This document shows, piece by piece, positions 17,405 to 62,743 of a stretch of 64,000 nt of DNA (its first letter is position 1; each line of letters begins with the position of its first letter). This DNA comes from Ginglymostoma cirratum. Lineage: Eukaryota. The notes under the pieces were generated by a model. The model ran no database searches. It had not been told where the DNA came from and saw nothing but the letters and a program-made list of their open reading frames with translations. Both the position numbers and the translations under genes were made by a program. Location of the stretch: NCBI GenBank assembly GCA_024137785.1, contig JAHRHZ010000283.1, positions 45,572,680 through 45,636,679 of the forward strand, in the 5' to 3' direction.

Positions 17405-17866
17405 CACAAACAAAAACGGAAGTTGCTGGAAAAGCTCAGCAGATCCGGCAGCATCTGGGAGGAAAACAAATCAGAGTTAACATTGCGGGTTCAGTGACCC
17501 TTCCTCAGAACTGGTCTGTGTAATAGCAATATAAATGCAGTGAGAGCAACTGTCTGTGGAACATTGAACGTCACAGAGATATCTGTGATCCTGGGAGGAT
17601 TCAAAACATGAGGGATAAAACTTCAATTGGAATCCAAACGGGGTGAGTCTGAGCCAGAGGTAGTCACTGAGGAATGTGATATAGCTGTGGAAACGTGTTT
17701 TAGCAAGTACCTGGTCAAACACCAGGAGTGACAGTTCTGAGGAAGGGTCACCAGACCCGAAATGTTAACTCTGATTTTTTTCCTCACAGATTCTGCCAGA
17801 CCTGCTGAGCCTTTCCAGCAAGATTTGTTTTTGCTCCTGATTTACAGCATCTACGTTCTTTTGGTT
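17405..17866 (-). mobile_element. Non-autonomous Penelope-derived fold-back element with two hammerhead cores
   Basis: Inverted arms ~17409-17512 and ~17733-17833; internal PLE N-terminus-like fragment (FDQVLAKTRFHSYITFLS); TSD CCTAATTAGAT at 17394-17404 and 17867-17877. Confidence 0.85.
17737..17767 (+). ncRNA. Hammerhead ribozyme core (PLE type)
   Basis: agtt-CTGAGGA-a-GGGTC-acca-GACCC-GAAA-tgtt-aact; the inverted copy at 17478-17508 has GCAA instead of GAAA. Confidence 0.75.
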
Positions 17867-18199
17867 CCTAATTAGATTATGCCCATTACACTGCCAACAG
17901 TTCTGGACACCACACCTTAAAAATAACATACCAGAATTGAGGGGAGTGCACCACAGAATGACTAGAATAGTACCTGACCTCCAAATGTTGCGATGGAATG
18001 AGGAATTATAAACAAACTAGCTTAATATTTAACTTGAAGTATTAACACTGTTTCTCTTTCCATGTGTGCTACCAGACCCACTGAGTATTTCAAGCACTTT
18101 CTGTTTTAATTTATTATTATTGTGTTTCCTGGAATTTGTTGAAGGCTGATTTAAATGAAGTTTCAAGATATTACAGCAAACAGAAATGGTATATTAAGA

Positions 18200-19115
18200 G
18201 TGCGAGCAGCTAGGGGCTAAATTAAAAAGCTGAACTCCAGAGGTAATCATCTCTGGATTGCCATAGTATATTGGCACAGGATAAGTAAGATCAGAGAAGT
18301 GAATGCATCCTCAAAGATTGAAAGAAGAGAATTTCTGTCTATGTGAGTTTGGCACCAGTAAAACGAAACGTCACAGAAAAGTGTGAGCTGTATTCAGGTG
18401 TAGGGTCAGCCTACACCCAATTCATGCTGGTGCTGGTGGTCTGAGGATCATATAACTATCGGGCAATTGAGAAGGCTTTAAACTAAAAAGGAGAGAAAAG
18501 CAATCAGGTGAGTGGTGACATGGTAAATTAGAGGGAAACAACAAAATAATTGTAGGGCAGCAATTTGGTAATGATTACCAGAATGTGACAGGAAAGAATA
18601 GAACATACAAACACTAGCATGCACCAGCAGTCAAGGCGAGAGACTGCAAAAGTGTTTTAAATAACAGAGTTTAGGACCCAGTATCTGAATGCTTGCGGCG
18701 TTTGTAACAACAATGCTGAATTGTTTGCGTAGATGGAGATAACCACGTATCACCTGGTGGGCATTACAGAGCTATGGCTGAAAGGTGACAAAGGCTGGGA
18801 CCTGACTGTCGAAGGGAATTTGACAAATCAGAGCCAGGGTAGTGGGATAGCCTTGTTAATTCAGGATGGGGATAGTGCAATCAAGAAAAACTACCTTAAG
18901 TTGAATGATCAAGGTGCGGAATTAGTTTGGGTAGAGATAAGAAATAAAGAAACTAACAGGTTGCTTGTGGGAATAGTTTATAGGACCCCTATTCAGTAGT
19001 TATACTGTAGGACAGAATATAAAGGAAAAATAAATGAGGCATGTGAGAAATGTACTGCAATACTCATTGTTGACTCTAATCTACATGTCGATTAGAAATT
19101 TAAATTGGCAAAGGC
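18200..19115 (+). mobile_element. CR1 5' region remnant (ORF1 end / AP endonuclease)
   Basis: YLNA.., YHLVGITELWL, WVEIRNK, LVGIVYR APE motifs. Confidence 0.75.
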
Positions 19116-20721
19116 AGCCCCAACCCCAATGCCGCAAATAAAACCTCTGCTGATATCATTATGGCCAAGTCAGACCCAGTCTGAAATCTGGCTTGATAGA
19201 TCATATTTTGTATTTCTTTTCGTTTTAATAAGGTGGTCTGTCTCACTGAAACACCCATACATAATACTGCTGATTTAGTTTTAATAATTAAATAGAAATG
19301 CACTATGCAAAAGAAAGGAAGATAAAATGGAACAAACCAAACTATTTTCATTTAACACAAGTTTAAGGATTTAAAAACTCCTGGTAAAATACATTTCCAT
19401 TAATGCAAAAAGTGTGCTTTACATTAATCACACCAGAAAGAATTCCCTTCTCTTTCACATCTGTTGGGCTTGACCTAATTGCGACTTCAATTCTTAGGCT
19501 TGAGAGTCTGATAATCTCTTCCTCGAGTTTTCCTATAACTGAACATAAACTTTCTCATCATCAAGGGTTTTAACCAAAAGGTTCTGATCTGCAACTTGAA
19601 ACTAAACTGCTTACACTGAGGTAATCTATTTCTTAACAGTTCCAAACCATGACTTTTCATCAGGAGCAACTGTTTTACACAGCTAGACTTAGTCAAGACT
19701 TCTGCAAAACTGCCAAACTGAAACCCAAAGCTTTTCTCCAAGCTATGTATGTTTCCCCCATTAAAAGGAAAATTAATCAATCTCTGTCCTTCTAAACTGA
19801 AAGCTTAATGTACAACTGTTGACTTTGTTAACTCAAAATAAATCTTTCCCAATGTGAACAAATTGCCATCAGGCTTGAAGAATTCTCTGTCTAAGGCTGT
19901 GATTTAAAATAAATCACCATGGCCACAGAAATAATTACAGGTTAACAGTTAAACTCCTTCAGACACACAGATAAAACTTACAAGCCGCTAGGTCAAATCC
20001 AAACTCTGAAATAAATGATGTTAAAATATATATTCATTAGGCACTTTTCATCACAGTGTGATGTCTTAGTGAGTGGGAGTTGCTGACTCTTGATCTATTG
20101 ATGGGTAAACCATGCCAGTTTTGTGCCTGCATCACCTGTGACTACCCAACTGTGTTCAAATACAGAAAAAAAATCCCTTTGATAGCTGATGTAGGATTCT
20201 TTTATATAGTTATCTTGCTTTCCCATGTTCTTGCACTGGAAAATTTCTTCTTAAAATTAACATCAAAACTATAATTTAGTGTAGCAATATTCTTTCAACT
20301 ATCTCCATTTATTTCTACTGATTCCTGCAAATTCAATCTTGAAGTGAAATGTGACCAGCTGGTTGGCATGTTGCTGATCTGGATCAATATTAGTGTTTGG
20401 AAAATCACTCCTGTAAGTTCCCAGATTTCTATCAAGTAACATTAGCTTTTTGAATCTAGGAAGTTCGCGATATCTCAAAATTGCACAGAAGGCGGCCATT
20501 TGGCCCATTGAGTCTCTGAAGGAGTAATTCACGTAGTGCTATCCTTGCACCTTCTCCTAAAAACCCTGCACATTGGTCTTTTTTCAATAATGACCCCATA
20601 AGCTCTTGAATGTTTCCAATCCAACTGCCTCCTCATATCCTCAGGCAGTATATTCCATTTCTTAAGCAGTACCATTGTTCATTGAAAAGTCCAAGTACAA
20701 GGTTGGTGATGAAATCGAAAT

Positions 20722-21025
20722 AGGGTGGCATAGTGGTTAGCACTGCTGCCTCACAGCACCAGGGACCCAGGTTCAATTCCACCCTCAGGCGATGGTCTGT
20801 TTGCACATTCTCCCCGTGTCTTTGTGGATTTCCTCTGGGTGCTCCAGTTTCCTCCCACAGTCCAAAGATGTGCAGTGTAGGTGGATTGGCCATGCTAAAT
20901 TTCCCATAGCATTCAGGGATGTGTAGATTAGGTGGTTTAAGGGGGGGAATTGGTCTGGGTGGGATGTCTGAGGGTCAGTGGGGACTTGTTGGGCTGTAGG
21001 GCCTGTTCCCGCACTGTAGGGATGG
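20722..21025 (+). mobile_element. HE1-like SINE
   Basis: GGTTAGCACTGCTGCCTCACAG, GGTTCAATTCC, CCCACAGTCCAAAGATGTGCAG. Confidence 0.88.
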
Positions 21026-21616
21026 ATTGATCGAAAAAGAAATAGAAAACTGATACAGTATAGATTTTAAAAAAGTCAAATTTTAGAGAGATTTTTGATG
21101 GCCGGAATGGATCAAAAGGAAATATGATGAATTAAAGGCGTCCTACTGACAATCAAGGAAATAGAACAGATATTTGTATGACTATTTTGAAATTGCTGTA
21201 TAGAGAAATGGAGAGTTAAGGGAAATCAACAAGAAAGATAAGGGGGCAGAGATCTAGTGTGGGATAAAATGTGGACTGTGATATTGAAGTTTGATCTCAT
21301 GTCAAGACTGTTGGAAATGGATGTTGGAAAGGTCAAATCTAAATGTGACAAAAGGATAATCAGGTTTCAGCAGGAAGTAAGATTTAAAAAAAACTTTTGA
21401 GAGTTCTGAAGTGGCTTCTACAATGCAAGAAGTTTCTCAAATTGATTCTAGTTGTTGGGCTTTTGATGGTTTAGGAAAGCTGAGTTGGTAAATATGCTGC
21501 CTATGGTTGAACTGAAACACATTTCTGAAATTATTTATTTCACATCACATTAAAAGAATACCTTGTATTGGTTTGAGGCCTGGAAGGAACCATAGCAGTC
21601 TACAGTCTACAGTCTA

Positions 21617-24481
21617 GATAATGAAGTCAGTGTGACTAAGGGGAAGAGTAGGCAGAGAGCAGATGATGAACGCAGAGGGACAGGCGGTCCGAGGTGCATT
21701 TGTTTTAATGCGAGAAGTGTAGTAGGTAAGGCAGTTGAACTTAGGGCTTGGATTAGTACCTGGGAGTATGATGTTATTGCTATTACTGAGACTTGGTTGA
21801 GGGAAGGGCAAGATTGGCAATTAAACATCCCAGGATATAGATGCTTCAGGCGGGATAGAGAGGGAGGTAAAAGGGGTGGAGGAGTTGCATTACTGGTCAA
21901 AGAGGATATCACAGCTGTGCTGAAGGAGGGCACTATGGAGAACTCGAGCAGTGAGGCAATTTGGGCAGAGCTCAGAAATAGAAAGGGTGCAGTAACAATG
22001 TTGGGGTTGTACTACAGGCCTCCCAACAGTGAGCGTGAGATAGAGGCACAAATATGTAGACAGATTATGGAAAGATGTAGGAGCAACAGGCTGGTGGTGA
22101 TGGGAGATTTGAATTTTCCCAACATTGACGAGGATTCACTTAGTGTTAGGCATTTAGATAGAGCAGAATTTGTAAGGAGCATCCAGGAGGGTTTTCTAGA
22201 GCAGTATGTAAATAGTCCAACTCGGGAAGGGGCCATACTGGACCTGGTGTTGGGGAATGAGCCCAGCCAGGTGGTTGAAGTTTCAGTATGGATTACTTTG
22301 GGAATAGGGATCACAATTCCGTAACCTTTAGAATACTGATGGACAAAGACGAGGAGTGGTCCTAAAGGAAGAGTGCTGAATTGGGGAAAGGCCAACAATT
22401 GCAAAATTCGACAGGAGCTGGGGAATGTGGATTGGGAGCAGCTGTTTGAGGGTAAATCCACATTTGATATGTGGGAGGCTTTTAAAGAGAGGTTGATTAG
22501 AGTGCAGGACAGACATGTCCCTGTGAAAATGAGGGATAGAAAGGGCAAGATTAGGGAACCATGGATGACAGGTGAAATTGTGAGACTAGCAAAGAGGAAG
22601 AAGGAAGCATACACAAGGTCTAGGCAACTGAAAACAGACGAAACTTTGGAAGAATATCAGGAAAGTAGGACCAATCTGAAATGAGGAATTAAGAGGGCTA
22701 AAAGGGTCATGAAATATCTTTAGCAAACAGGGTTAAGGAAAATCCCAAAGCCTTTTATTCATACATAAGATGCAAGAGGGTAACTAGAGAAAGGGTTGGC
22801 CCACTCAAGGACAAAGGAGGGAAGTTATGCGAGGAGTCAGAGAAAATGAGTGAGATTCTTAATGAGTACTTTGTGTCGGTATTCACTGAGGACAGGGACA
22901 TGACGGATATTGAGGTTAGGGATAGATGTTTGATTACTCCAGGTCAAGTCAACATAAGGAGAGGGGGGAAGTGTTGGGTATTCTAAAAGGCATTAGGGTG
23001 GACAAGTCCCCAGGTGTCCCGGAGGACTGGAGAATTGCTAATGTTGTCACCTTGTTTAAGAAGGGTAGCAAGGATAATCCAGGTAATTATAGACGGGTGA
23101 GCCTGATGTCAGTGGTGGGGAATCTGCTGGAGAAGATACTGAGGGATAAGATCTATTTACATTTGGAAGAAAATGGGCTTATTAGTGAGAGACAGCATGG
23201 TTTTGTACAGGGAAGGTCATGTCTTACCAACTTGATAGAATTCTTTGAGGAATTGACAAAGTTGATAGATGAGGGAAGGGCTGTAGGTGTCATATACATG
23301 GACTTCAGTAAGCCGTTTGATAAGGGTCCCCATGGTAGGCTGATGGAGAAAGTGAAGTCACATGGGGTCCAGATTGTACTAGCTAGATGCATAGAGAACT
23401 GACTGGGCAACAGGAGACAGAGAGTTGTAGTGGAAGGGAGTTTCTCAAAATGGAGAACTGTGACCAGTGGTGCTCCACAGGGATCCGTGTTGGGACCACT
23501 GTTGTTTGTGATATACATAAATGATCTGGAGGAAGGTATAGATGGTCTGATTAGCAAGTTTGCAGATGACACTAAGATTGGTGGAGTAGCAGATAGTGAA
23601 GGGACTGTCGGAGAATGCAGCAGAATATAGATAGATTGGAGAGTTGGGCGGAGAAACGGCAGATGGAGTTCAATCCAGGCAAATGAGAGGTGATGCATTT
23701 TGGAAGATCCAAGTCAAGAGCGAACTATACGGTAAATGGAAAAGCCCTGGGGAAAATTGATGCACAGAGATCTGGGTATTCAGGTCCATTGTACCCTGAA
23801 GGTGGCAATGCAGGTCAATAGAGTGGTCAAGAAGGCGTACGGCATGCTTTCATTCATCAGACGGGGTACTGAGTACAAGAGTTGGCAGGTCATGTTACAG
23901 TTGTATAGGATTTTGGTTCGACCACATTTGGAACACTGCGTACAGTTCTGGTCATCACATTACCAAAAGGATGTGGATGCTTTGGAGAGGGTGCAGAGGA
24001 GGTTCACCAGGATGTTGCCTGGTATGGACGGGGCTAGCTACAAAGAGAGGTTGAGTAGATTAGGATTATTTACATTAGAAAGACAGAGGTTAAGGGGGGA
24101 CCTGATTGAGGTCTACAAAATCATGAGAGGTACAGACAGGGTGGATAGCAAGAAGCTTTTTCCCAGACTGGGGGACTCGATTACTAGGGGTCACGATTTC
24201 GAAGTGAGAGGGGAAAAGTTTAAGGGAGATATGCGTGGAAAGTTCTTTACGCAGAGGGTGGTGGGTGCCTGGAACGCGTTGCCAGCGGAGGTGGTAGAGG
24301 CAGGCACGATAGTGTCATTTAAGATGAATCTAGACGGATACATGAATGGGGCAGGGAGCAGAGGGATACAGATCCTTGGAAAATAGGCGACAGGTTTAGA
24401 TAGTGGATCCGGATCAGCGCAGGCTTGGAGGGCCGAAGGACCTGTTCCTGTGCTGTAATTTTCTTTGATCTTTGTTCTTTG
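21617..24481 (+). mobile_element. CR1 LINE, 5'-truncated, near-complete ORF2 (APE+RT) with stops and frameshifts
   Basis: APE (NARS, AITETWL, YRPP, GDLN, LDLVL), RT ([24 protein letters not shown]), C-terminal FFTQRVV, (TTCTTTG)n tail. Confidence 0.95.
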
Positions 24482-25354: not shown

Positions 25355-26225
25355 AACCATCATACAGTCTCTGACTGAATGGGTACTTCTTACATTCTCT
25401 ACCTGTTTTTAGTCCTTTTTCTATTTTGGAAAACTCAAAAGCCCATCAGGATCTTTTAACTAAAGAACCATGAGTGACTCCACAATAATTGTCAAAGTCT
25501 GAAGCAAGTTGACTGAATTTACTTTCAAAAGATCAGACTTGCTCTTTTGTTCTCCAAATTAAAAAAAAGTCAAATTAGCAAAACTCATATCGTACCACCA
25601 TACTGGGGCAGCAAAATAGCATAGCAAATGACAGCAAAAAAATACATGAAGTTTAAAATAACCATACAAAACTACTAATTACAAAACCAACTTATTTTTA
25701 AATATTGTTGTATCACATTTGCTGGACAGCAAGTGAATGTCAGGTGACAGATCTGTGCAAAGTTTCTCAAGAGATACAGCAACCAACAAATGTGAAAACA
25801 CTGTAATGATTCAGGGAATCATGAACTCTTTAGCAAAGTTTTTTGCCCAATTTTTCATCAGACTTAGAATCTCTATGCAGGTTCACTGCTACCAATGTGA
25901 AGTAGTATTGGGACACAGAAACAGAACTAGCTTTCACTAAAATCAAACTTGATACTAAGACAGTGCTGAGGAATGACAGTGTCAATGAAGAAGTCACCCT
26001 GCTCTATGATGTCAACGAAACAGACTTGGATTAACCTTTATGCAGCCATGACAACCAGTTAACCATCACACAGTCTCTGACTGAAGGGGTACATGCCTTA
26101 TGTTCTCTACCTTTCTTTGGTCTTTTTACTATTCTGGAAAATTCCAAAGCCCATCAGTATCTTTTAACTAAAGAGCCATGAGGGACTTCACAAGAACTGT
26201 CAAAGTCTGAAGCAAGTTGACTGAA
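25355..26225 (+). repeat. Pair of ~165-bp direct repeats (25355-25517 and 26061-26225)
   Basis: Both start AACCATCAyACAGTCTCTGACTGAA and end GTCAAAGTCTGAAGCAAGTTGACTGAA. Confidence 0.9.
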
Positions 26226-27740: not shown

Positions 27741-27787
27741 TGTGAATCAATGGTTGTGAATAACTAGACATATCATAGAGTCATCAC

Positions 27788-27995
27788 AGAATCCTTACAG
27801 TGTGGAAACAGGCCCTTCGGCCTAACAAGTCCACACCGACCCACACAGCATCCCACCCAGACCCATTCCCCTATAAACCCACATAATCTACGCATCCCTG
27901 AACACTATGGGCAATTTAGCATGGCCAATCCACCTAGCCTGCACACCTTTAGACCGTGGGAGGAAACCGGAGAACCCAGAGTAAAACTGCAGACA
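27788..27995 (-). mobile_element. HE1-like SINE, 5'-truncated
   Basis: Matches the 3' two-thirds of 6131-6450. Confidence 0.85.
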
Positions 27996-28470: not shown

Positions 28471-29719
28471 CAGAATTATATCAATCTTTGTCTCCTTGCC
28501 TTCTTTGAGTTTGCCTAATTTTTTCACAATTTTATTCAAATGCTTTTATTTCATTGCTCATCTCATAGTTCCGTGTCATCTACACTTATTCTATCCCAGA
28601 TAGGATACGAAAGTAATTATTTAATGTTTCTGCCTTCTCTCCATTGCTGTCTGTAGTATTATGCTGTCAATCCTTTAATGATCTTATTTCTATCAGCCTT
28701 CCTTTCTTCTACTGATGTGACTGCAAAACATTTTACCTTTTAAAATTAGCAGGGAACATAAAGCAATGTCATTGATCCTCTTTGGCTTTCTAATGACTTT
28801 TTAAAAAATGTCCATCTCTTCATATTCTATCTCATTGCAGTCTTCAACTATCCACGTACTAAATGCTTGCATCCATGGAACCACACAGGTTTAGTTTATT
28901 CTTTCCCTCTTGAGGAATACATTTTTCTGCACTCTGTTCAAGACAATTTCAAAAGTTTCCCTCTATCAATATACACAATTGTTTACCAATACAGTCAGCA
29001 ATTTTATTTCCTGAAATTCTATTCTTAGCCCCTCAAAATCAGACGTTCTCGGATCTATTACTTTGTTTTTCATAATATTTATGTCCTCTCCATTATCTTA
29101 ATAAAGTGTGCTCTATTATGGTCGCTATATTACTGTCAGGATTTTCCTTTATCTTTAATTCTCTCAGTTTATGTAGTTCATTCCCCATTACTAATCCAAA
29201 AACATTCCCTTGTTGAGCTGTTTACATAATGATGTCATCAAATGGCGTGGTTTCCTGATCTTCTTCCCTTTTCCACACCTATTATCAATCCCTTATCTAT
29301 CTTTGTACTTTTGAAGAGGAAAGGGTGTGGGGGATTTAAGGATAGGGTATAAATTATAAAGAAATTGTAGCAATTCATATTTCCTAATTGCCAATGCATT
29401 ATGCCTCACTGAGGCAGCATGCTAAAAGTCAAGCCCGCTATTTCCAGAGTTGTCACAAGAGTTAAATTTTTTTTCAAAGTACATAAATTACACAATTTAC
29501 CTGTCTTTTAGACCCAGGTTGCCAGAAAGCATGGACCAAATTTCAGTACTTAATAAAAATGACTATTTATTACAGTAATAAATACAAGTGAACAGTAATG
29601 AATCAGTGGCAGTTTAGTACAGGATGGTGTATGAGCATGCACTTTGGTCAGAAGAATCAAAAGACAAACTATAACTTAAACAGAGAAAGATTTTTTTAAA
29701 AAAAATTACAACAGAGGGG

Positions 29720-29908
29720 TAGAGATAACAAGGTGTAGAGCTGGATGAACACAGCAGGCCAGGCAGCATCAGAGGAGCAGGAAAGCTGATGTTTTGCGTC
29801 TGGACCCTTCTTCAGAAAATGCCCCTCTGATGCTGCCTGGCCTGCCGTGTTCATCCAGCTCTACACCTTGTTATCTCAGACTCCAGCATCGGCAGTTCCT
29901 AATATCTC
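29720..29908 (-). mobile_element. Minimal Penelope-derived fold-back element (189 bp) with a decayed hammerhead in the loop
   Basis: ~54-bp inverted arms (29722-29775 / 29824-29877, one mismatch); TSD TTACAACAGAGGGG at 29706-29719 and 29909-29922. Confidence 0.9.
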
Positions 29909-29922
29909 TTACAACAGAGGGG

Positions 29923-35710: not shown

Positions 35711-38636
35711 GCTGCATTTTCTAAATATCTGAACAGGAGGAAAGTGCAGGGATGTGAGGAGAGGGCAGTACACAAATTACTCCTTAGGAGTGTCAGTGCC
35801 TTAGGCAGACACCGAAGAAAGCAAGTGGCTTCAATCCTAAAGAAGATAACTGGGTATCAAGAACATCATGTTTTCCTTGCTTTGACCATGCAACGGCACT
35901 GAAACATTAATGGCCTAATAGCAGTTCAGGCATGTTTAAAATAAAAATCAGGAATCATGGGAGACTGGCAAGGACTAGGTGGGCAAAGATGAATATGTAG
36001 CATCTTTGTAATTGGATGGTTAAGTAAGGGCGCAAGTCCATAATTAGGTTAAACAGTTCTCCGTAGGATTTGCTTTGCAGTAGACAATGACAAGGAAGGG
36101 ACAGATTGACAAAGGTCTATCACATGTGTCATGTCAACTGGATGAAAGTGACTGGGGTACATTTCAATGGGAGTAGATTGTAAAAAATACAACCTTCTAC
36201 ACAGGCCATAGTGAGATATAACTCATGATTATAACATGTAAACTAATATATCAAGTCTCACTCAATAAATAAACCAGAACATTACTACAACTAAGAGTCA
36301 AGCTAAATCTTTCCTAACTAGAGTGAAAAGATTAATTTGCTTGAAACCCAAACTCAACATGAAAAAATACACATCGCTCTTTCCAATTCAAGAATTTTCC
36401 CAAATGTTCCCCTCAACTACTTATGGTTTGCTTATCTCTTTGACGTAGGCTTGGATTATAAGGTACTTTTATAACTTAACTAACTTCCCCTCAAACACGT
36501 ATGCAATTGTAAAAGCTGGACTCAGAATCAGGCAATTGCTGTAATCTGACTTGTTAGTTGCCATGTACAGAGCTGTCCCAACACCATGAAAATTTGTTGG
36601 TGGGCACTCTTAAGCCATTCCTCAACAAGGCTGGGTCATATTCCGGATCTGAAAAATATTATGCTCATCAGGTTTGAACTGTCATGCAGAACATATAGTC
36701 CCAAACACTAAGAATACAAAATGTGCTGTTTTTCAGTGAGAAATGGTAGCTCCTGGATTGGCATGAAAGATACTGCAACTTAACTGAATAGAAACTGAAC
36801 AATATCAATCAGGCATCATTGATCAAGGTGATTCATCAGATTACAGGCAAATAGTAAGTGAACACTCATATTTACATTTTACAAAGTACACATCCCTTGG
36901 GCTAAGGTAACTCTGTTTAGCTTTGATAGCAATTGATAGCAATTACATCTCGGCCTTCAAAAGCATACTTCTCTTGTAAACTGTTTTCACAATAGACAGT
37001 TATTTCATCTACTCTTAAGCTAATGCGCAGTTTAATATGCTCAGAGTTATAAATGCACTAGCATTAAATTAGCACAGATTTATCAGACGATTTAAGAAAA
37101 TGTTAGTCATGACTTAAGTAATATGCATTCTATAAAGTTTAGCGCAATGAATTAAGTTTTCTACAGCAAAAAAAATTCCTTGAAGATTTTAAAGTGTCAC
37201 TGGCAAAAATACATTCATTACTTAATGAAATAATTTCTAGGCCATAAAGATGAGAGAACTGTCCGAAACCAGGCTCCCAGATTTGAAGTCTAAATTGTGC
37301 AAAGTCCTTACTAAATATTTGGCAAATTTATTTTTGCAAAAGAAATTCACAAATTATGGAGTTTTATATTACGACCTCAAAAACTTTGAGATCTGCCAAA
37401 ACGAATGATATACTTCAAATTAGTATGCACATTACTGGATTGAATTATAAACACCAAGTCAAGATACAAAGAAGCAACTTAGTAAAGATATACCAATGGG
37501 ATTACACAAGGTCAACATAGATTGATGAAAAGAAAATTGTGTTATACACTAGAAGGTAAATGTTTTCTGAACAAAGTGCAAAGCCATACTGCTACTGACA
37601 GCTTTATTTCAGTTAACCACATTGTATGAAACTCACACCTAATTGAGTACTAGCTCTCCACATTTATAGAATCAATTTATACCCAATTAACAATTCATTG
37701 ATATTTCCATCACGTTCTCTCACTTCAGTAAGCCACAGGTATTCTCTCGGATGATTTTAGATAATAACAGATTTCCTTTTTTCTTTTGAAGTAAATCAAT
37801 ATAAACGATACAAAAGAACAAAATATACAAATGATAACATATTATACTCTATTTGTTTTTCTTTGCACAATAAAGTTCCGTGGGTCATTTTTCCACTATG
37901 TCCGATAGTTTCTTGAGCTGGCTCCTTTCTTTGTAAAACAGTCAGATACTTGATTGCAGGTAGCCACCATTTCAGTTTGGAGATTTCTCTATTCTCCAGA
38001 ATCTATTTTAAAACTGTAAAATCAACGATCAGTCCTTTTCAATTCACACATCTCAGTGAGTGCATGTGATCCCGTGGTAACTTATCAATGTAGCTATATG
38101 TTGCTGCTGAATACCACTTTAGACTTTGTTCTGACATTTCACTAAGAAAAATGCCATTCCGACTGTCTCAGAAACAGTGGGTCTTCTACCACTAAGGTAC
38201 TTTTCATCACTTCTCTAATCTTTTCAGCTTCAAAGGCTAAATTGTGATGTTTACTTTCCTTTACCACAAGAAAAATTACAAACTCTCCTACACTTAAAAA
38301 CCCATCACCAATATCTGCATAAGAAGCATCACTAAGAACCACAAGTTTCATATTCTTCACCTCCCAACGCTGGAAATTTCAATACACAATGCTCTACTTT
38401 GAAATTTTTCAATCGTTTATTCATCCAAATAATATTTTTTACCTTGGGATTTTTCACAGTTGTAATCAGCTCTAATAATTTCAAAATTGGCTTTGTTTGG
38501 GTGCCAAACCAATTCAGCTGTCCAAGTAAAATTTGCAGTTCCCCCATTTTGGTTTAAAAGCTGCTGCATCTTTTTGAGGTAACAAGGTGATGATGAACAC
38601 AGCAGGCCAAGCAGCATCATAGGAGCAGGAAAGCTT

Positions 38637-38664
38637 GACGTTTCGGGCCTAGACCCTTCATCAG
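38637..38664 (-). ncRNA. Hammerhead ribozyme core (PLE minimal type)
   Basis: CTGATGA-a-GGG-tctagg-CCC-GAAACGTC. Confidence 0.8.
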
Positions 38665-40815: not shown

Positions 40816-40843
40816 CTGATGAAGGGTCTAGGCCCGAAAGGTC
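40816..40843 (+). ncRNA. Hammerhead ribozyme core, stem III mutated
   Basis: CTGATGA-a-GGG-tctagg-CCC-GAAAGGTC. Confidence 0.65.
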
Positions 40844-42479
40844 AAGCTTTCCTGCTCGGCCTGCTGTGTTCATCCAGCTCCACACCTTGTTATCTCGGAT
40901 TCTCCAGCATCTGCAGTTCCTATTATCTCTGATACATTATTCCTGAGGTTCATTGATTTATAATAAATCCCAAATCCTTTTGCTTCTCAAAACTACAAAT
41001 AGTATTTGGCTTTATTTCTCTCGGTTACAATTCTCCTTTTGTTCTGTCACCTGTCACTTCTATCTAGATGGTCTCATCAATTTGTTAAAGTTGTGACTTC
41101 CATTTTCTTTTGTATCACTGAGGCCCCACTTGTGCAATGAACACTGCCAGAAAGGTATGTTTTCCCAGATATCTTTTCTAGTGCTTCTGACGAGTGTTCT
41201 AGCAATGTCTATTTGTCTGCAAATTTAACTTGTGTCAAAACTAAAATCTGCCCATAATTAGTACTTTGGCACAGTCCAATAACTTTAAGGCCAGAATAGA
41301 TTGGGTTATTTCCAAACTAAATTTCTGCAGTCTTCCTCACAAAATACTGAATTCTATTATTTACAGTTCCTTTGACAAATTCAGAAAGATTGGAGATAGA
41401 ACAAAGTCTGATCATGCCTCAATAAATCATCTTTTTGTTAAATTTTAAATCAGATTAACAAATCAGTCCAAAGCTTCTTCAATGTCAAATGACCACGCTC
41501 CAATTCTGACAAAATTTGGTTTCTTAGCCCGCTTCTGGATGGTAACAGAAGTGCCAGGGCCATACCTTGTTTCCTCTTTGGTAAAGAAATAACCCAGGTC
41601 CACATGTTTATTTCATTATTCCATTGGTTATAACGCTCACTTTCATAAAAAGGGAGTGGGCAATAAAACTCCAAATCTTTGTATGTTGACTCAATCATCC
41701 TCTACAAGACATACACTACAAGATAAATGTTTCTGTACAGAATCCAAGCCCACACCTTTGCAAGACCTTTATACCTGTTAACCACATTCCATAAAACTCA
41801 CACCCCAATGAAAGTTACACATAAAATTTCTATATTTATACAACCGTTCCACATTCAATTAACCCTTAATTATCACAACCATCATCGGTTCACCTGCTCC
41901 ATAATGATCAGATTAGACCACATTAGAACCATAATGTAGATAACGACTTCAGTAGGTGATTGGCTATTGATTAGAAAATATTGATTAATAATTATTAAAA
42001 CATTTTTAAAATGTTGTCCTTTGCTTTCTGTTTTTCTTCATTGCTTTGATCCATCAGGTTGGAAGTTCATTTTCCTCCATTAAAAGTGTCAAGGGATCTA
42101 GGGGAAGGGCAGCAGTATGGCATTCAGATAGAGGATCAGCCACAACCCTGGAACAGTGGAGTGGGGTCAGTGAGCCAAAAGGCCTACTCCTGATCCCATT
42201 TTCTATGTTTCTATATCTTACAGAGCACACTAAAATGGGATATAAAGGATACAAGTAAAAACAAACTTCCAACAAGATAGAACAAAAACATGAAGATAAA
42301 TTGGAAACAAAAGGCAATCTTTTAAAGATATATTAATTCATTCTGTTTTGAAACTTGGCAGTTGTCCCACAATATTTGCACTTTTTTTTGCAGTCTTCAT
42401 TCCTACCAGTAACTTCCTGCTACATTAAGGCCCACACTAACTCCACTGAGTAACAAGCTGCTGAAGGTCATGTGTAGTC

Positions 42480-44352: not shown

Positions 44353-45255
44353 AGATCCTATCATTAACATATCCATCTCATTCCCTGAAGATGTAGCCAC
44401 TGTTAAGGGCCTCATTCCTTGAGAATGAAGATACATCATCTAGAATCTGAAAACACCACCATATTTTGTACTGCTATACATCAGTACCCCCTCCAGATCA
44501 ATTATAGTCCTGTCGCTGAATTTTCAACAAAGGCAAGAAACAGGGTCCAAGTCTGTTTTGAACTCAGAAACCCATCTCCAGCAACAGACAGATTAAAGTT
44601 AAGATTTTCACATGGGGAAGTTCTGGGCCTCGAGGCCGTTTCTACGGGTGGCCTCTCAAAAGACCTAGGGGGCAAATAACAGGCCGTCCAGCTTCAGAGA
44701 AGCATCCGACTACAGTACTTGGAGGGCACCTTAGTATAGATATGCCTTCTCAGCTCCTTCTAAAATATTTAATTAGAGAAAGTAAAAGCAGCCAGGCCAC
44801 TACCAAGACAGTCTTCTCTGCAGGGTGGTCTTTGGCTGCACTCCCACCCAAGCACACATGGAGGGCTGAGAGGTCAGTAGATCTGCCTCCCCACTCACCC
44901 ATCACTTTGGGAAATTGGAGCGTTCCTGGGAAATTGCAATTGCCCTCCAAACCTACTTTTAACAAGGCGCTTAATGAGTTTAATTGCCTGCTTGCCTCCT
45001 AGGGAGTTGATGAATGGATTTTCTGAGTTCACCACCTCACATAATGGCCAGGAATGGTGTGCTGACATAGACAGTACAGCTTTGCAAGAGGTGGAGTGAA
45101 AATTCAGCCCATGATGTGGGCTGGAAACAACATTTTATTGCTTTACAGAACGAATCAAGAATGGACAGCTGCCAATTGGTGCAATTTACAATTTCAGTTC
45201 AATTTGGGATTGTTGTGCTTACACTAAACATTCACAGAATCTATGCAACTCTTAC

Positions 45256-45623: not shown

Positions 45624-47997
45624 CTGTGTACAACAAACATTGTTTAATGTCTTTTCTGCACAGATAATGACTAAAACATTACATCCTTAAAAGCATGTCC
45701 GGCTCATCTTGTTTTAAAAGCACCATGTTTGTAAATATTCTGTCTTCAGTCAACTCATAACTTATTCACCTTTAGAGCATTGATCCACATTAAAAGTCTA
45801 TTATGTTAATTGGGCAAACAAACTGCCCATCCAATTTAAGAATTATTTAAAATTCATAACATTTTTCAAACTAGATTAGAATACGCTCATGTTTAAAAAC
45901 ATACACACTAACATTATATCTCAAGATTCCTCTCTTTTTTATCTCCTAATTCAGATCTATTTTCATCCAGTCTCCTGATTGTTCTATTATGCAACTTTTC
46001 TCTGCCACAGTATGGATAAGTGGTCTGGTCCCACTGATGTCTGTTAATGCCACACTATCAGCAGCCAAGATGGACATAATCTTACCATTTCTTTCAAACA
46101 CTTATTGGTCCAAACTTGTATAAAATAACTAATCCAGGTGAGGTGACAATAACTGTTCCTGGCATCAATGCAGGATTTGACAAATGTAGCATCAAGGAAC
46201 CCAACTAAAACTAAAGTGAATGGGAACTGGGAGGCGATTACTGGCATTGCTACACCACCACCGCTTCCCCTGATGAAAAGATGTGCCTTCTCAGCTCCTT
46301 CTAAGATATTTAATTAGAAAAAGTAAAAGCAGCCAGGCCAGTACCAAGGCAACCTTCTCTACAGGGTGGTCTTTGGCTGCACTCCTACCCAGGCACACAT
46401 GGAGGGCTGAAAGGTCAGTAGATCTGCCTCCCCAGACTGTTGCTTTTTAATACTTGGAAGATGTTATTGATGTGGTTAACTTAAAGATTTATCCGATATG
46501 CATATCTGAGTAAATGATATTGGAAATTTGTTTATCACTGAGTAAAATATATTCAGATATGGTGATAATGTCATTGGATTATTAATTCAGATGCCTGAGA
46601 TTCTGGAGAATCCAGAAGGCTAATGCTGTGGGAACGTAGGATCAAATCCCATCATGACAGCCAACAGAGTTTAAATTCAATTAATAAAATCTGGTACTCA
46701 AAGCTTGTATGTGTGGGCATGAACTTATCATCGATTTCTGACAAAATATGACATTCAGAATGGAATTCAACGCATTTGGGATTATACATTAGAAAACAGT
46801 TGTTAACAAACAATCCGATAGGAAAACAATGAGATTCAAGTATAGCTAATAATTCTGCAGAAGAAAAACCGTCAGCAAAGTTACAATGCTAGCAAGACCA
46901 TTGTAATGGTTGTCACTGCTAGTGTTCTAGAACGTAATAATGGTATCAGCATAGGCGAGAAGTACTAGTGAGTTCCTGACCCAGCTTACTTCCCTTTTAG
47001 GGTACTGATCTGATTTTAAGAAAGGGATGACTAGTACAATGTGATATAATTAAATTCAAATTTATTTCATTTTTACTGCTTGGTGTTCTGATGACAGAAT
47101 ATTTCTGTTGTGCAAGTCTAAAATTTCCATTGGTGATTTTGAGATCAATGGGAATTTGCTTTTAAAATGTGAAGTACAGCCCTGTTCTCTCTCAGGTTCT
47201 CTCTCCCTTTCTCCTGTTACTACGTGGGCATGGAGTTTAATAAAACTCATGCCTGTTTCTTTTACCGCATTTGAATTTTGATCTTCTGCGTCACATTACT
47301 GTACACCAGTCCTGTGAAAATACTCAAAAATGATTCAAAACACAATGTTGATAGAGGAAATTATGTGAAGACAAATATTTGTATCTACTGCATCTTGCAT
47401 AATCAGAAATTGAAGTTTGTTACCTTGCTGCATGTTGACTATATGGCTGCTCTTCCTATAAAAGCCTGGCCTGAACAATGAGTGCTCACAAGCCACTTAA
47501 CCAATTGTCTGACGTCACAATCAATCCAATTTTGTTCTCACAGGACACTGACAGTGGCTCACTCTCCAGTGGAAGGCAGCTATAAAGTAATTAGGAGCTG
47601 GAATCCTGAGTGATTTTCTCTTCCTGGTTGAAGTCATTAGGATGACTGAAAAATTTCTAAAAATACTCCAGCTCAGCAAATCATCCAATGTGGGACTTTT
47701 TTGTTCTGTTTGGGTCAGTAACAACCTTAGTAGAGCACTTATTCTTCAAGTTAAAGTGACAGCTTAATAAAGTGCGGTTAAAATCCACTGATGCAACTGA
47801 AAAGAGCAATTGTGGCTTTCATTAAGCATACAACTGTTGTTGTGATGACTGTTGCTCTCAGTAATACATTTTATGATATCTACATTTGTTCTCTGAATTG
47901 AAAAAATAAGCTGAAAATGTAACAGAAGATCTCTTCAGTTTTGTAACATCTTGCTCATGATTGGGATGATGCAAAAGGGGATTCCATTGGATTATTT

Positions 47998-48277
47998 CAT
48001 AGAATCTCATAGAATCCCTATAGTGTGGAATCAGGCCATTCGGCCCATCGAGTCCACACTGACCCAACCCCCCACCCTATCCTGCATTTCCCACCCTAGA
48101 CGCTACGGGCAATTTAGCATGGCCAATCCACCTACCTGCACACCTTTGGACTGTGGGAGGAAACCGATCACCCGGAGGAAACCCATGCGGACACGAGGAG
48201 AATGTGCAAATTCGACACCGACAGTTGCCTGAGGATGTGAGGCAACAGTGCTAACCACTGAATCACCATGCAACCCC
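47998..48277 (-). mobile_element. HE1-like SINE
   Basis: Same family as 6131-6450, internal deletion. Confidence 0.85.
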
Positions 48278-50899: not shown

Positions 50900-52190
50900 T
50901 CCTCAATCAAGGATTCTATCCAGCGTGGTCAATAGGACCTAAGCAGTGTCCAACTCATTTCTCCTAATTCTGCCCTCACTCCTTCAAGGATAACAAGTGT
51001 TCCTCTTGTCCTCACTTTCCATTTCTCTAGTCTCAGTACTGACAGAACATAGGACAGTACAACACAGGACAGGCCCTTCAGCCCACCGTGTGTCCGCCCA
51101 CCACGAAGCCACTCTACTAATCCCAACTACCTGGTCTATATCTCTCTATTCCCTGCTTGTACATGTGTCTGTTTAAATGGCTCTTATCATATCTGCTTCT
51201 ATCACCTCTCCTGGCAGCATGTTTCAGGCACCTATCACCCTCTGTGTAAAAAACGTTTACTGCATTACCAACTGAGTTACCCACATTCCATATGGATGAC
51301 TCAAAAGATTCATTCTCCACCTTTTCCACCGTCTTTTCTCTTCTCCTCCACTGTCAGCATTCTGTAGGGTCTCTTCCCTCCACGACAGCCTGGTTAACTC
51401 CTTATACTTCCTCAGCCCCAACTACGGCACCTTCCTGTGCAATCACAAAAGGTGTAACACTTGCCTTCTCACCACCTGCCTCCTCACTGTCCAAGGCCCC
51501 AAATATACTTTCCAGGTGAAGCAGTATTTTATTTGTACTCTTTCAACCTAGTCTTCTACCTTTACTGTCACAATCCAATCTCATTTACAAGGACAATGAC
51601 AAATGCAGACTGGGTGACTGCTTTGTGAATGCCTGCTTAAGAGCGACCCTGAACTTCAAATTGTCTGCCATTTCAATACATCACCTTGCTCACATGTTAA
51701 CATCTCTGTCCTTGGCCTGCTACAGTGTTCCAGTGAAGTTCAGTTAAAGCTGGAGACACATCTTGTTTTCTGTTTCGGTAATACACAGCTTCTAAGCTAC
51801 AACACTGAATTCACGTAACTTCAGACAGTGTCCTGTGTTCTCCATTTCGCTGACAACAGCCCTGGTCATGTCTCATTAGCTTTTCTCTCAGCAAAGCAGA
51901 CCCATTGTCTCCTTTCTACATCTCTCATTTACACCAATTCTACATCTCTATCACTCCTTTCCCACCTTTTGCTCTGGGCACCCACAAAATCTGTTGTACT
52001 CGTTCCTCCACTTCTGTCAACAGCACTAAAAAACACAGATTTCCAGCCCTATTCAGTTCTGAAGAGGAGTTACATTGGAATTGAAATGTTAACTCGGTTT
52101 CTCTCTCCACAGATGCTGCCAGACCTGCAGTGTTTCTCCAGTACTTTCTGTTTTATTTTAGATTTCCAGTAACCACAGTATTTTGCTTTC
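50900..52190 (+). mobile_element. Decayed PLE 3' half with pLTR, interrupted by a CR1 3' fragment (~51040-51260, minus)
   Basis: Collinear with the 38937-39700 PLE region (VPLVLTFH; gactgggtgactgctttg = RLGDxF; tgccatttcaat = HFN); hammerhead at 52059-52091. Confidence 0.75.
52059..52091 (+). ncRNA. Hammerhead ribozyme core (degenerate stem II)
   Basis: agtt-CTGAAGA-ggagttacattggaatt-GAAA-tgtt-aact. Confidence 0.55.
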
Positions 52191-52818
52191 AGTCTCTACA
52201 AGGATAGTAACTTTGGAGTCAGAAGGGAGAGTCGGGAAGCAAAAAAACAGTAAAACTTATGAATGACATATACTGGCCTGATTCATCTTGTATAACTCAA
52301 AATGGAGCCCAAATATGATTTCTGTTCATTTACAAGTATTGCTCTGATCAGTAAGGCTCTGGGTTCGAGTTCTACTCAGGAATGATGATGAAATCCAGCT
52401 CATTACTGTGCAGGCATACACTGCTGCCATCCTGAGTTTTCGTATAGACACACAACAAAAGGCAACCCACCACAGTGGTCATCCTACTGCAGCACTCGGG
52501 TAATTGAGCTGAGCAATTATAAGGACAAACATACTTTAAACAGTAGGTTTCTATTAGACCAGAGATGGGGTCCTACACATGATGGGGACTGGTATTGATC
52601 CACACTGGAAGATCAGTTTGCACTGGAATGAAGGGTGATGAGGCCAATACAAAGTGCTCTCCTTTAACTGGGAACAAAGAATCTTTACTTGACTTGGGTC
52701 ATTTGATTCTCACAACTTATGAAATAAATCTAATCATAAATTTCTACCACACAAGTTATATTTTAAAGGCTGCAACATAGAGTAAATTGTCTCATTTTCT
52801 AAAAATACTTTTGCATAC

Positions 52819-52982
52819 CTGAATCTCACTGCATTCTTCAGTGGTGTATCACCATATCGATCTTTGGCATAAACGGTGGCTCCGCGGCTGAGCAGATACT
52901 GCACAACTTCTAGGTGTCCTTCACAAGCTGCTATATGTAGTGGGGTTCGTCCATCATAATCCTCGCTACACAGGTTCCCACC
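52819..52982 (-). CDS. ASPG: ASPG internal exon (~exon 12), ankyrin repeats
   Basis: 164 nt, tttcag|...|gtatg, phase 0/2; GGNLCSEDYDGRTPLHIAACEGHLEVVQYLLSRGATVYAKDRYGDTPLKNAVRF(R), canonical ankyrin GxTPLHxAA. Confidence 0.95.
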
Positions 52983-53369
52983 CTGAAAGACATGTTGTTT
53001 TGAAATAAGCAGAGAGGGAGAAAAAAAGTAAAAGTAAATTGCCCTTTTAAAACCTGTGTCTTCTTTTAGATCTTATGTTATAACAATAATTCTAAATAGT
53101 CAGGGGAAAAAAAAAGTAACTATGTATTAACCACAATTATGATGTAATGAGCTATATTAACCAGAGGTCTGTAGTTCAATTCCTTGACTGATCTCATGAC
53201 ATGAATCTGCTAAATAGTGAATAGACCTCATTGCTCCTAAGCTGAAGAGTGAGACATAGGTCAAGACTTAAATAATATCTAAAGCACCGAAACTGGCCAT
53301 TTACGCCAAATAGTTGGCACTTATACACTTCAAACAAGCCTCCTCCCAACATACTTCATCTAAAATAAG

Positions 53370-53466
53370 AAATAACAAAGTGTGGAGCTAGACGAGCACA
53401 GCAGGCCAGGCAGCATCAGGGGAACAGGAAAGGTGACGTTTCGGGTCGGGACCCTTCTTCAGAAAT
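53370..53466 (-). mobile_element. Solo PLE pLTR end with intact hammerhead core (53435-53462)
   Basis: Minus strand CTGAAGA-a-GGGTC-cc-GACCC-GAAACGTC followed by the shared arm gatgctgcctggcctgctgtg. Confidence 0.8.
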
Positions 53467-55463
53467 CCTGTGTTTTGATTAATTCCTACAGGTTAGTGTA
53501 TATTTGTAGAACTCTGGTAAACATCGCATTGAGCCTGTGATGCATTCAATGCCTGACAGTCTGTTGGTACTCACTCTATAAGTCTACATATAAAAACAAT
53601 CTGCATCTCAGCATGCATTTGAAAGAAGAAGAAAGAACAGGATCAGAAACAGATCCAAAAAAAATCTTCAGTGCTGTCAAACTGCAAAAATAACTTCTAT
53701 AAGCATAAAATACCCTTTAATTGATTTTTATGAAGGAAAAGGTCTGGTTAATATTAGATTGTACTCTAGTAGAAAGCATCTTTATCTTTCAGGTATTTAC
53801 TCATCTATTATGTACTTGAAGAAAATATTATTTTAGCGTAGTTTATTTTAGGGTGAGACCAGAGATCAGAAGTAACTTTGCTCTAAGGTAACATAACAAA
53901 TATTGAAAGAGTCCAGACAAAACCTGATTTGTATTGTTTGACTCATTTAACAACTGTATTAAGTGAGCTGGGAAGAGGAGTGGATGTTATAGGGATGGGT
54001 ATTACTTAAGTGCAAACTTCATTGTAGAATATAATCTACAGTGTTTGGGTCAGGAAAAAGTGATGATTTGGGAGCAATAGACCAGAGTTAAATAATGAGG
54101 CTGTGACAATAAATAAACATTCCGTGGAACACCTTCAAATATGAGAATGAGCTTATGTAGATGTCTCCTTGAGGGAAGTAACATGAGATTATGACCTGAT
54201 TGAACAGACTGTGAATCACTGGTGGAAGAAAAAGGTAAGATGTATTAAACTGAATTTTCTTCTTCATGGTTACCTCAAGTTTTGGATAAACTATGCTTTC
54301 CTGACCATTAGTAAGACTGGAACCACATCTTCAACTCAAGCTAAAATGTCTGTGCCATTTCCACTGATTGGACTCTCAGTCCAGTGTTTCAGATCAAACC
54401 AGGCAATTCAACATCATGCATCCTCACTGGGAGTTCTGGTCAGATGTCCACTCCCTTACAAGAGCAAATTCTTAGTGGCCCTCTCTTGATATGAGGACTC
54501 ACACCATGATACAGTCCTAGTAGCGTTTCCTGGTACATCATTCCACCACCCTTAAGTATGAACCAAGACAGTAAGAATCAAAAGGCTGCTAAACAGTAAC
54601 AACTTGACTACAGCTTCACCCAACATCTACAAGTGTGTACTTCCTAGAAAGTGCCACTAAACACTAATCAGGAATGCAAACACATTAGTCTTCTTCACTG
54701 TAAGATGCTAAAAACAATTCTTTGAACTGGAATCAGGGTGGCCATATAAGATAAAAGACTGTTTATTAATGTACCATTTTGATCAGTTGTTATTTCATAA
54801 TTGTTGGCTGATCGTAACTGACTTTTTTATTCTATTGCAGACTTTAATTGCAGTGTCAGTGTCACTCACAACACTCTACAAGTTTCTTGGCGATTCAGAA
54901 CATACTTCCAAGAGCAATTGAACCAGAAAGACATTGGAGGGTTAGAATTAAAATTCTTGTCAATGGCACTCAATTTCTAAAGCTGTTTTTTAAGATAGAA
55001 ACCTACATGTCAACGTGGAAAACCACTATGTAAAAATGCTATTCAGCTTACTGCTTGTGTGGAACATAAGCAATGACTGACTGGTTGAGTCATACAGCCA
55101 GTTTCTTTCTATAAATAGTTCTGAGTCTTGTAGATGCTAAATGATTAAGATAGCTTTAACTGCAAAATCTGAAAATTTAGGAATTGCAAAACTGCCTAGG
55201 GTGATGTTTCTATTCCATAAAAAAAAGCACAGAAAATGCTGGAGACACCCAGTGGGTTAAAACTTACCTCTGGCAAAAACAAGAGTTCACATTTTAGGAA
55301 TAGTAACTTTGCCAAAACAATTCTTACAAATGATTCATGCTCCAATTGTGAGCTCATATTTTTTCTATATAAGTTATTTGATCTATGAAGTGTTTCCCGC
55401 ATTGTGTATTGCTTTCTATTTTGCAGGTTTTGTTGTAGCTTTTATTTTCCTTTTTGTTTTTAC

Positions 55464-60823: not shown

Positions 60824-60937
60824 CTTCCTCTTCTCTTGAATACTTAGTTCTGCCTTGCCTAGTACGTAGGACAATTTAGCCAAAGCAGCTTCAGGTGTCA
60901 TGTCACCTCCTGGAATAAGACCTACATCTGTAAGAGC
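60824..60937 (-). CDS. ASPG: ASPG internal exon (~exon 9 by analogy to human), end of asparaginase domain
   Basis: 114 nt, ttcag|...|gtatg, phase 0/0; ALTDVGLIPGGDMTPEAALAKLSYVLGKAELSIQEKRK contains the type I asparaginase DMTxEAALAKL motif. Confidence 0.95.
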
Positions 60938-62428
60938 CTGAAATTGCAAGTAAATAGAACTTGAAATATATTTCAGTTGAAATAGAAGTTATAGTATATA
61001 AAGAAATTAGCGTGAAAGTTATTACACATGGACCCATAATTAATCATTCTCAGAATTAATACTAGACTTAATGGTTAATTGTCCAAATATACAGGAACTG
61101 ATTTTACACTTTCGTACTGATTATAAGCAGCACACAAATTCCATGGAGCTATGTACTTTATAATAATTTTATAACAAGTTCTCTGTTGCATTCTGTCCTG
61201 TAATCAGGTTTATTGACAGAACCAATGATCTGTTTTTATCAAAGCATAGACACATGTTATCAAATCAGGGGCAAAATAGGATTGCAGAAGTATATTCTGC
61301 TCAATCAAGTGGAGGAAAATGTGTAATTTTTTTTGTATTTTGTGCTCTGCGTCCTTTTTATGTGCATTTTATATGAACTCCAAGTAGATGAAAGGTTAAG
61401 TCAAATTTACATTTCAGATGCATGACCCATGTGACTTCAGTCAAGTCACAGTCACCCTGATGTGAATTCTAAGTGTAAGTAATATAAGGGCAGTAGGACA
61501 AATGATTAAAATTATGTTACGAGCTGTGATCAAAGAATATGATTAATGGACTTTGTCACTGGAAGAAATTAGCATTGGTTTGTCAAATGATTATACAGGA
61601 CACAGTTAACGAAGGACTGCTTCGACATTGAGGATATCTTGTTTGGATCAGGGGTCATGACCACAGGATATTTGTCTCTGGCAAATCAGACCCAAATGGC
61701 AATATCAGAATAGAGCAGGGGCCCAGTTGCAGAGGATAGAAGAACTCACTGAAGAGGCTGAACGCACAGATTTCAAGATGATATGGGAGAGGAGAGGCCA
61801 CCTTGTTTATGAGCCACCTTGAGCCTAGCGTGGTTGGAAGCAAGAACCATTTAACTAGGACGTCAATGATCTTTGTTTGTTTATAACTTCTGATGTTGAA
61901 TAAATTGCCTGAACACCGCTAGATTAGGTGTCGCCTTGTCTGACAAATATCATCTAGTCTGGAAGATGCTAATACCAGCTATCTAACAAGCAGTCATGCT
62001 GACAGAGCACTGAAGAATATTTTTAAAATCATCCTGTTCAAACATGGTGTGACTCACCTCCAGGGCAGACAGAACTCAAAACTGGACCTTTCAGTCCAAA
62101 GGTAGGGACATGACAACAGTGCCACATGAGCTGACTTTGAGCCATTCTTGCATTCATACTAGTAGCAATTCTGTGATCAATGATTTTGATTAAAACACGT
62201 TAGGGTTAATGTTATTACCTTTCATCAAGGATTAAACGTCGCAGAACACTGCCCTAATGTGAAGCTGAGTCACTTACTTTCATTTACAACAACGCTCTTG
62301 TGCCCACCATGTTGGTGAGGGACCTTTTTTGAATGTTTGGAGTACCTGTCTGCCTCAGATGGTTAGTCATTAGTAATAAACAAATTGGGTAAAAGGAAAC
62401 CCAAAAGCAGGCAGTGAACTTAACTGTG

Positions 62429-62743
62429 ATAGAGATAAAAGGTACTGCAGATGCTGGAGAATCCGAGATAACAAGCATGGGGCTGGATGAACACAGCAGG
62501 TCAAGCAGCATCATACTCACCTTTACTGGCTCCATCCCCGCCTCTTCGACTTGTCTGCCTCCTCTCCACCTATCCTCTCCTCTATCCATCCTGTATCCAC
62601 CTCCCCCTCTCTCCCTATTTATTTCAGAACCCTCTTCCCCTCCCCCATTTCTGATGAAGGGTTTAGGCCCGAAACGTCGAGTTTTCCTGCTCCTACGATG
62701 CTGCTTGACCTGCTGTGTTCATCCAGCCCCATGCTTGTTATCT
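62429..62743 (+). mobile_element. Non-autonomous Penelope pLTR fold-back element with intact hammerhead
   Basis: 47-bp perfect inverted arms 62466-62512 / 62697-62743; TSD AGTGAACTTAACTGTG at 62413-62428 and 62744-62759; body matches the pLTR at 40680-40896. Confidence 0.92.
62651..62678 (+). ncRNA. Hammerhead ribozyme core (PLE minimal type)
   Basis: CTGATGA-a-GGG-tttagg-CCC-GAAACGTC. Confidence 0.8.

Follow-up and report, generated by a model that had tools for sequence, protein, structure and literature searches.

Four head-to-head Penelope-like insertions in one shark contig and the side of their tail

Some retroelement insertions consist of two facing copies of the same terminal sequence, only one of which extends into a short tail; on which side does the tail lie, and what would a fixed side say about how the two copies were made? 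A stretch of 64,000 nt from Ginglymostoma cirratum (GenBank assembly GCA_024137785.1, contig JAHRHZ010000283.1, positions 45,572,680 to 45,636,679 of the forward strand; 40.5% GC, 10 N), hereafter the window, raises this question at four places. All four are head-to-head Penelope-like element (PLE) insertions of two Neptune-type families, with E1 (from 17405) belonging to family A and E2 (from 29720), E3 (from 38576), and E4 (from 62429) to family B. The original prediction, made from the sequence alone, described each as a variably truncated body ending in a pseudo-long terminal repeat (pLTR), with an inverted copy of that pLTR at the body's 5′ side, and all four inverted-arm elements are present. 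Alignments place the tail on the inverted arm in four of four elements (27, 31, 35–40, and 37 nt in E1 to E4) and find it absent from the body. In E2, E3, and E4, it is the longer arm that ends without a tail, and the shorter, inverted one continues past that point for 31, 35–40, and 37 nt, respectively. This count covers four elements of one 64-kb window and corresponds to p = 0.0625 one-sided and 0.125 two-sided, with an exact 95% interval of 0.40–1.0.

Anatomy of the four insertions

E3 is read on the minus strand from a tailless 3′ pLTR (38576–38936), which holds an intact minimal hammerhead (38637–38664), into a 5′-truncated, stop-free open reading frame (ORF; 38937–40517) of 526 amino acids with a reverse transcriptase (RT), a CX4CXXC linker, and a GIY-YIG endonuclease with an internal CXXC. 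The elements had been taken to be ORF-less, a description that this 526-codon RT-endonuclease frame contradicts. The frame meets the inverted pLTR (40518–40896, +) at a blunt junction; the latter has a hammerhead core at 40816–40843 with a minority change at 40840, a 14-nt deletion near 40851, and a tail (40897–40936, +) of 35 nt if it ends at 40931 or 40 nt if it ends at 40936, without a target-site duplication (TSD). In E4, a tail of 37 nt (62429–62465, −) and an inverted arm of 50 nt without a hammerhead (62466–62515, −) face a tailless body (62516–62743, +) with an intact minimal hammerhead at 62651–62678. The E2 body is itself a tailless arm (29720–29821, −) that starts 6 nt before hammerhead position C3, and its core (29788–29815, −) is damaged and fails the hammerhead descriptors. 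The E2 inverted arm (29820–29877, +) overlaps the body by 2 nt at the junction, starts about 10 nt downstream of the predicted cleavage site, and continues into a 31-nt tail (29878–29908, +).

E1 departs from the predicted plan of a truncated body with an inverted pLTR copy, a geometry that all four elements otherwise display, in that its body is a piece of ORF fused to a pLTR end. The tailless pLTR end (17405–17513, −) lies in ORF sense, starts 5 nt before C3, and contains a core (17479–17508, −) with a damaged GAAA box; it is joined directly to a middle segment (17514–17731, −) that encodes an N-terminal piece of the PLE ORF (approximately codons 30–100). The inverted arm (17732–17839, +; core 17737–17766) and the tailless arm share their first base within the unit, and the inverted arm carries the 27-nt tail (17840–17866, +). 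The DNA alone does not tell which of the E1 arms is inverted, and protein matches decide. All 18 tblastn hits (best E 2e-11; 121 proteins searched) fall in the minus frame of the middle segment, which is 70% identical to the Heterodontus protein P0122 (E 1e-15), and the body therefore lies on the minus strand. Since the ORF piece thus shares the strand of the tailless arm, the tail is on the inverted arm. A word-based protein search with the piece gave no match, and an exhaustive search found 8 proteins. An ORF reading through the inverted arm was ruled out, as the residues of P0122 differ there and the frame contains a stop.

As predicted, three elements are flanked by TSDs of 11–16 bp, all exact: 11 bp for E1 (17394–17404 and 17867–17877), 14 bp for E2 (29706–29719 and 29909–29922), and 16 bp for E4 (62413–62428 and 62744–62759). 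Among 300 random position pairs, 0 reached 10 bp and 27 gave 6 bp. At the E3 site, one contig of a second organism (organism B, described below) aligns with the right flank alone, beginning at 40939, a sign that this organism may lack E3 here.

By the definitions of PMC8557442, the linker places E3 in the Neptune/Nematis type rather than in Penelope/Poseidon; family A is known here from its N-terminal ORF piece only, so the linker assignment rests on E3. The E3 protein, P0001, matches RVT_1 (E 1e-5) and GIY-YIG (E 1e-3), both under the Pfam cut-offs, and is 91% identical to a Rhincodon and 85% identical to a Stegostoma protein, identities that make a carpet shark the likely host. It is 51–55% identical to relatives of about 900 amino acids, and because full-length relatives have that size, some 380 codons are missing at the 5′ end of the E3 ORF. 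As in endonuclease-positive (EN+) PLEs, a single ORF combines the RT with a C-terminal GIY-YIG domain, and a CXXC sits between the two GIY-YIG nuclease motifs. The CX4CXXC of P0001 falls within the CX2-5CXXC linker pattern that Neptune and Nematis have between RT and endonuclease. The EN+ characters extend to the pLTR with minimal hammerheads (five strict cores, all in arms) and to the inverted 5′-truncated copy with a one-sided 30–40-bp tail and a TSD (arm and tail in four of four, TSD in three of four).

Priming of both target strands and its alternatives

Neither the arm can be a copy of the body nor the body a copy of the arm, because the tail is found only on the arm and the upstream sequence only on the body; both therefore require the element RNA. 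The reading we favor, with moderate confidence, is that these are truncated head-to-head insertions in which both nicked target strands primed cDNA, one at an inner, tailless and one at an outer, tailed RNA start site. The stagger between the target nicks would set the TSD; the two cDNAs would end at unequal positions, in many cases where the RNA itself begins, just upstream of the hammerhead; and their 3′ ends would then be joined, each templating the second strand of the other. More speculatively, if both primers were placed on one RNA, the tail-primed RT would trail and could not pass the other, leaving the tail on the shorter inverted arm. We infer that priming of two strands, with one site per strand, would account for the geometry, the one-sided tail, and the TSD. 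In vitro, the protein of PAc, an Anolis Poseidon PLE, nicks and extends both target strands and begins reverse transcription at two positions, one at each border of the tail, and the positions used do not differ between the strands; a PLE dimer is also predicted (Frangieh et al. 2024, PMC11167929). In a stricter version, which we regard as possible but hold only tentatively, the side of the tail is a rule, a trace left in the genome when a PLE dimer copies a single RNA twice, with the leading RT at the inner site and the trailing RT at the tail end. The tailed arm would then never reach further upstream, and many of the very short copies would reflect run-off to a transcription start just before the hammerhead, not random truncations.

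The junctions bear on a published alternative, akin to the fold-back named in the original prediction: synthesis primes itself, or folds back, on an antisense template to yield the inverted arm, and the endonuclease, when it later resolves the intermediate, either removes the tail or spares it. That fold-back was proposed from palindromes at the junctions of inverted rotifer PLEs (Arkhipova 2013, PMC3846280). A role of the endonuclease was proposed for the tail (Craig 2021, PMC8557442), and recognition by the Drosophila virilis endonuclease depends on the tail (as cited in PMC11167929). The model also predicts near-identical arms. In the window, the E3 junction is blunt when set against the continuation letters of other copies, E2 shares 2 nt, and E4 shares 1 nt; the longest junction palindrome is 4 bp, the chance level for 153 tries, so that, unlike the published inverted junctions, none of the four shark elements has a palindrome above chance. 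Moreover, a copy of a tailless body cannot gain a tail, and direct measurements on PAc located RT starts at each of the two borders of the tail (PMC11167929). This origin is therefore improbable, and the fold-back invoked for these elements is probably wrong, as the short arm carries sequence that the body lacks.

Where the arms start is informative about the preferred reading of two primed strands. Four of the nine arm starts in the window, namely those of both E1 arms (17513 and 17732), the E2 body (29821), and a solo stub (53466), lie 4–6 nt before C3, and none of the nine coincides with the hammerhead cleavage site. This clustering is most simply read as run-off at the 5′ end of the RNA. 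On that ground, E1 would not be a deleted full element but a run-off cDNA whose synthesis then jumped to the ORF start close by. Family B has motifs, which we take to be a TATA-like box (40781–40787, + in E3) and an initiator-like A (40812) 31 nt apart, that make 40781–40815 a candidate RNA-start region.

Sequence reads extend the view beyond the window. Four of 24 listed runs were aligned to an 801-base reference (40300–41100): contigs of organism A (X2) and organism B (X13) and two RNA runs (X21 and X22). With 20,504 and 63,006 contigs matching, the family has a very high copy number in shark genomes. The loose ends listed include a tailless cluster at 40895/40896 (248 X2 contigs, 285 + 786 X13 contigs, and 4566 X21 reads) and a tailed cluster at 40930/40931/40936 (100 + 115 X2 contigs and 7934 + 2942 + 2379 X21 reads). 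These two discrete end clusters, 34–40 nt apart in reads of two organisms, establish that both the tailless and the tailed end types are family-wide; read alignment does not phase ends with junctions, so the side of the tail is not countable from reads. The reference carries the 14-nt deletion of E3, which distorts the table of joints and under-recruits tailless copies, and the tail-to-pre-tail depth ratio (0.66–0.93) was set aside for this reason. Among the joints listed, those between opposite strands cluster at 40809–40821 (1 X2 and 15 X13 contigs; 1404 X21 reads over 8 positions), and hairpins like E2, in which the upstream border of the hammerhead forms the start of one arm, therefore recur. 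Separately, 20 X13 and 2 X2 contigs join a tailless end (40896) directly to an inverted tailed end (40931), tail to tail, which could represent tandem head-to-head units or insertion at an element's own end.

Whether the two arms derive from one RNA separates the stricter version from a competing reading to which we give comparable, and limited, weight: each strand is primed by an RNA-protein particle of its own, or from one of two RNAs bound to a single dimer, the side of the tail is free, and four of four reflects chance plus the 35-nt offset. The p-value of 0.06–0.125 is compatible with this, and according to Craig et al. (PMC8557442), the tail occurs 'at either end'. The pLTR pieces of E1 start at the same base and the arms of E2 differ by only about 43 nt, which leaves E3 and E4 as the clean tests of the tail side. 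The arms of E3 differ at about 5% of sites. On the other side, the arms of E2 mismatch at 1 of 51 positions and those of E4 at 1 of 50, compared with 4–13 mismatches against other copies, and they share variants unseen in other copies of the window, a likeness that fits one source. Further, the presence of one tailed and one tailless end in every element still requires the primers to be coordinated.

Several points weigh against the preferred reading of two-strand priming and against a tail-side rule. A fixed side beyond these four elements is unproven at n = 4 and p = 0.06, and the fair null exceeds 50:50 for short copies, since of two cDNAs equal in length, the one primed at the tail falls about 35 nt short of the other. 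E3 shows only a chance-level 6-mer at its flanks in place of a TSD; within the 3′ segment, its arms resemble other copies at least as much as they resemble each other (5/40), and only 4 of 11 listed minority alleles are common to both. The similarity of the E2 and E4 arms could come from conversion after insertion. Among the opposite-strand joints, the partner coordinate 40852 is an artefact of the 14-nt deletion in the reference, and the start of the RNA just before the hammerhead is suggested by motifs only. Finally, the in vitro data concern a Poseidon element and include no head-to-head product.

Hammerhead cores in the arms

The nine hammerhead-like cores counted originally become five under a strict descriptor, to which only 1 of 100 Markov-shuffled windows gave any hit, or about 8–11 homologous positions when decayed ones are included; only two are fully intact. 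A palindromic helix III is kept in three of the five strict cores, and just two of these, at 38664 (−) and 62651 (+), also have a helix I of at least 3 bp. For stem II, the predicted pairing probability is 0.95 in the solo stub, compared with 0.00–0.01 in the tested cores of E1, E3 (local window), and E4. An Rfam search at E ≤ 5 returned 8 matches, all under the gathering score and none to a hammerhead family; its miRNA hits on E2 reflect only the hairpin. A core-like motif at 17667 (+) was dismissed as chance, being antisense to the E1 ORF piece and having a G-U-only stem. The cores agree with the minimal hammerheads of metazoan PLEs (Cervera and de la Pena 2014, PMC4209133) in the CUGANGA core, the extra base before stem II, the G10.1-C11.1 pair, the palindromic minimal helix III, the short helix I, and the pairing of opposite-strand motifs 100–700 bp apart. 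Nothing essential differs from that description; stem II here has only 3–5 Watson–Crick bp, and most cores are decayed.

The prediction of ribozyme-bearing hairpins as a functional class would be met by a self-propagating, non-autonomous, retrozyme-like family with active ribozymes, which we consider very improbable. PLE-derived retrozymes exist in vertebrates, according to a retrozyme preprint, and the copies here are abundant and mostly short, with the X21 read depth about 40-fold higher near the 3′ end than over the ORF. By the definition of the preprint, however, non-LTR retrozymes are tandem same-strand units, each with a complete hammerhead, whereas the shark elements are not tandem. The four junctions all differ, two families are involved, and most cores are damaged, predicted to misfold, or buried in the arm duplex. 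None of the four elements has two same-strand cores, which cleavage as a dimer needs. As monomers, minimal hammerheads show no activity, and as dimers only weak activity (PMC4209133); the PAc hammerhead needs protein, its mutants still inserting in vitro (PMC11167929).

A search for RNA ends at the hammerhead had also been proposed. No pile-up of ends was found in X21 or X22, which is weak evidence, X21 being apparently unstranded and X22 having only 46 reads. Among the positions listed, there is no place where many molecules begin or end, and 91% of the aligned X21 reads continue into unrelated sequence, as read-through would give. PMC11167929 similarly reports no PAc RNA ends at the cleavage site. 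The hammerhead cores are likely passengers in dead copies, and the elements are probably dead insertion scars, not active ribozyme elements.

Other copies, surroundings, and known PLE insertions

Beyond the four elements, the window holds a solo tailless family-B stub (53368–53466, −) that starts 4 nt before C3, an old PLE copy (about 51300–52190, +) with an ORF remnant and a family-A-like pLTR whose tail-like end is on the body, decayed family-A-like ends at about 18012–18115 and 55219–55298, and a decayed, near-full-length PLE of a third family (about 9690–11620, +) with a hammerhead remnant of its own near 11516. The third-family copy is broken by a short tandem repeat and the 10-N gap at about 9927–10048. 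An inverted arm was not found at about 9700–11620 (score 21) or 51300–52190 (score 24), against null medians of 22 and 24, nor 5′ of the stub (score 18, computed without a null). None of these three copies has a TSD longer than 7 bp, and that of the stub is not above chance. The claim that the tail always lies on the inverted arm stands for the four elements (n = 4), and the tail is probably not confined to inverted arms, because the copy at 51300–52190 has a tail-like body end and no inverted arm was found for it. A pattern scan for further copies returned viral 0, metagenome 5, and bacterial genome 3 loci; all eight match over only 19–30 bases and were rejected as chance.

The elements are probably intronic, judging from an ankyrin-repeat coding exon of a host gene within 52737–53072 (−; Pfam Ank_4, E 2e-14). 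This exon may resemble the asparaginase-like ASPG. Elsewhere, the window contains a decayed LINE (21596–24383, +) with APE (apurinic/apyrimidinic) endonuclease and RT frames; a SINE-like repeat in several copies of both orientations (6130–6447, 9073–9244, 20724–21023, 27770–27995, and 47994–48225); and two direct-repeat pairs with units of about 160 bp, which may be the termini of other elements (44738–44893 and 46279–46434, 93% identical; 25355–25517 and 26061–26225, 87% identical).

The architecture is a known one, and these elements are shark members of it. LINE-1 twin priming also lets both target strands prime and leaves an inverted 5′ segment, a TSD, and short junction microhomology. Its two segments do not overlap, whereas the shark arms start from nearly the same 3′ point, giving a palindrome. 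The EN+ PLE insertion unit of PMC3846280 and PMC8557442 has a truncated body, an adjacent inverted truncated copy placed head to head, a 30–40-bp tail at one end, and a TSD. Thus, of the reproducible integration mechanism proposed originally, the PLE identity and the geometry are supported, the geometry having already been described and the tail already given a mechanistic account in vitro by the two RT start sites (PMC11167929); an inverted copy and a tail are likewise listed among PLE peculiarities in PMC8969392. The published tail is 'at either end' or on 'one of the inverted pLTRs', and here it is on the inverted arm in four of four; the rotifer TSDs are 8–10 bp, compared with 11–16 bp in the shark elements. 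As in PAc, two discrete 3′ ends bound the tail downstream of the hammerhead (PMC11167929). In contrast to PAc, the E3 protein has the CX2-5CXXC linker that Penelope and Poseidon lack, and no stable tail stem-loop is predicted in the shark copies (none in 5 of 5 folds, z −0.3 to 1.2). Inverted arms are not addressed in the text of PMC11167929.

In the literature searched, with the exception of key figures (including Fig. S2 of Frangieh et al.) and two older reviews, no statement of a fixed tail side was found, and those figures may already show such a rule. If the side of the tail is free, these insertions are ordinary repeat debris. What may be new is a fixed tail side together with its mechanistic meaning, in a group of elements for which the making of tandem and inverted insertions is stated as unresolved in PMC8557442 and PMC11167929.

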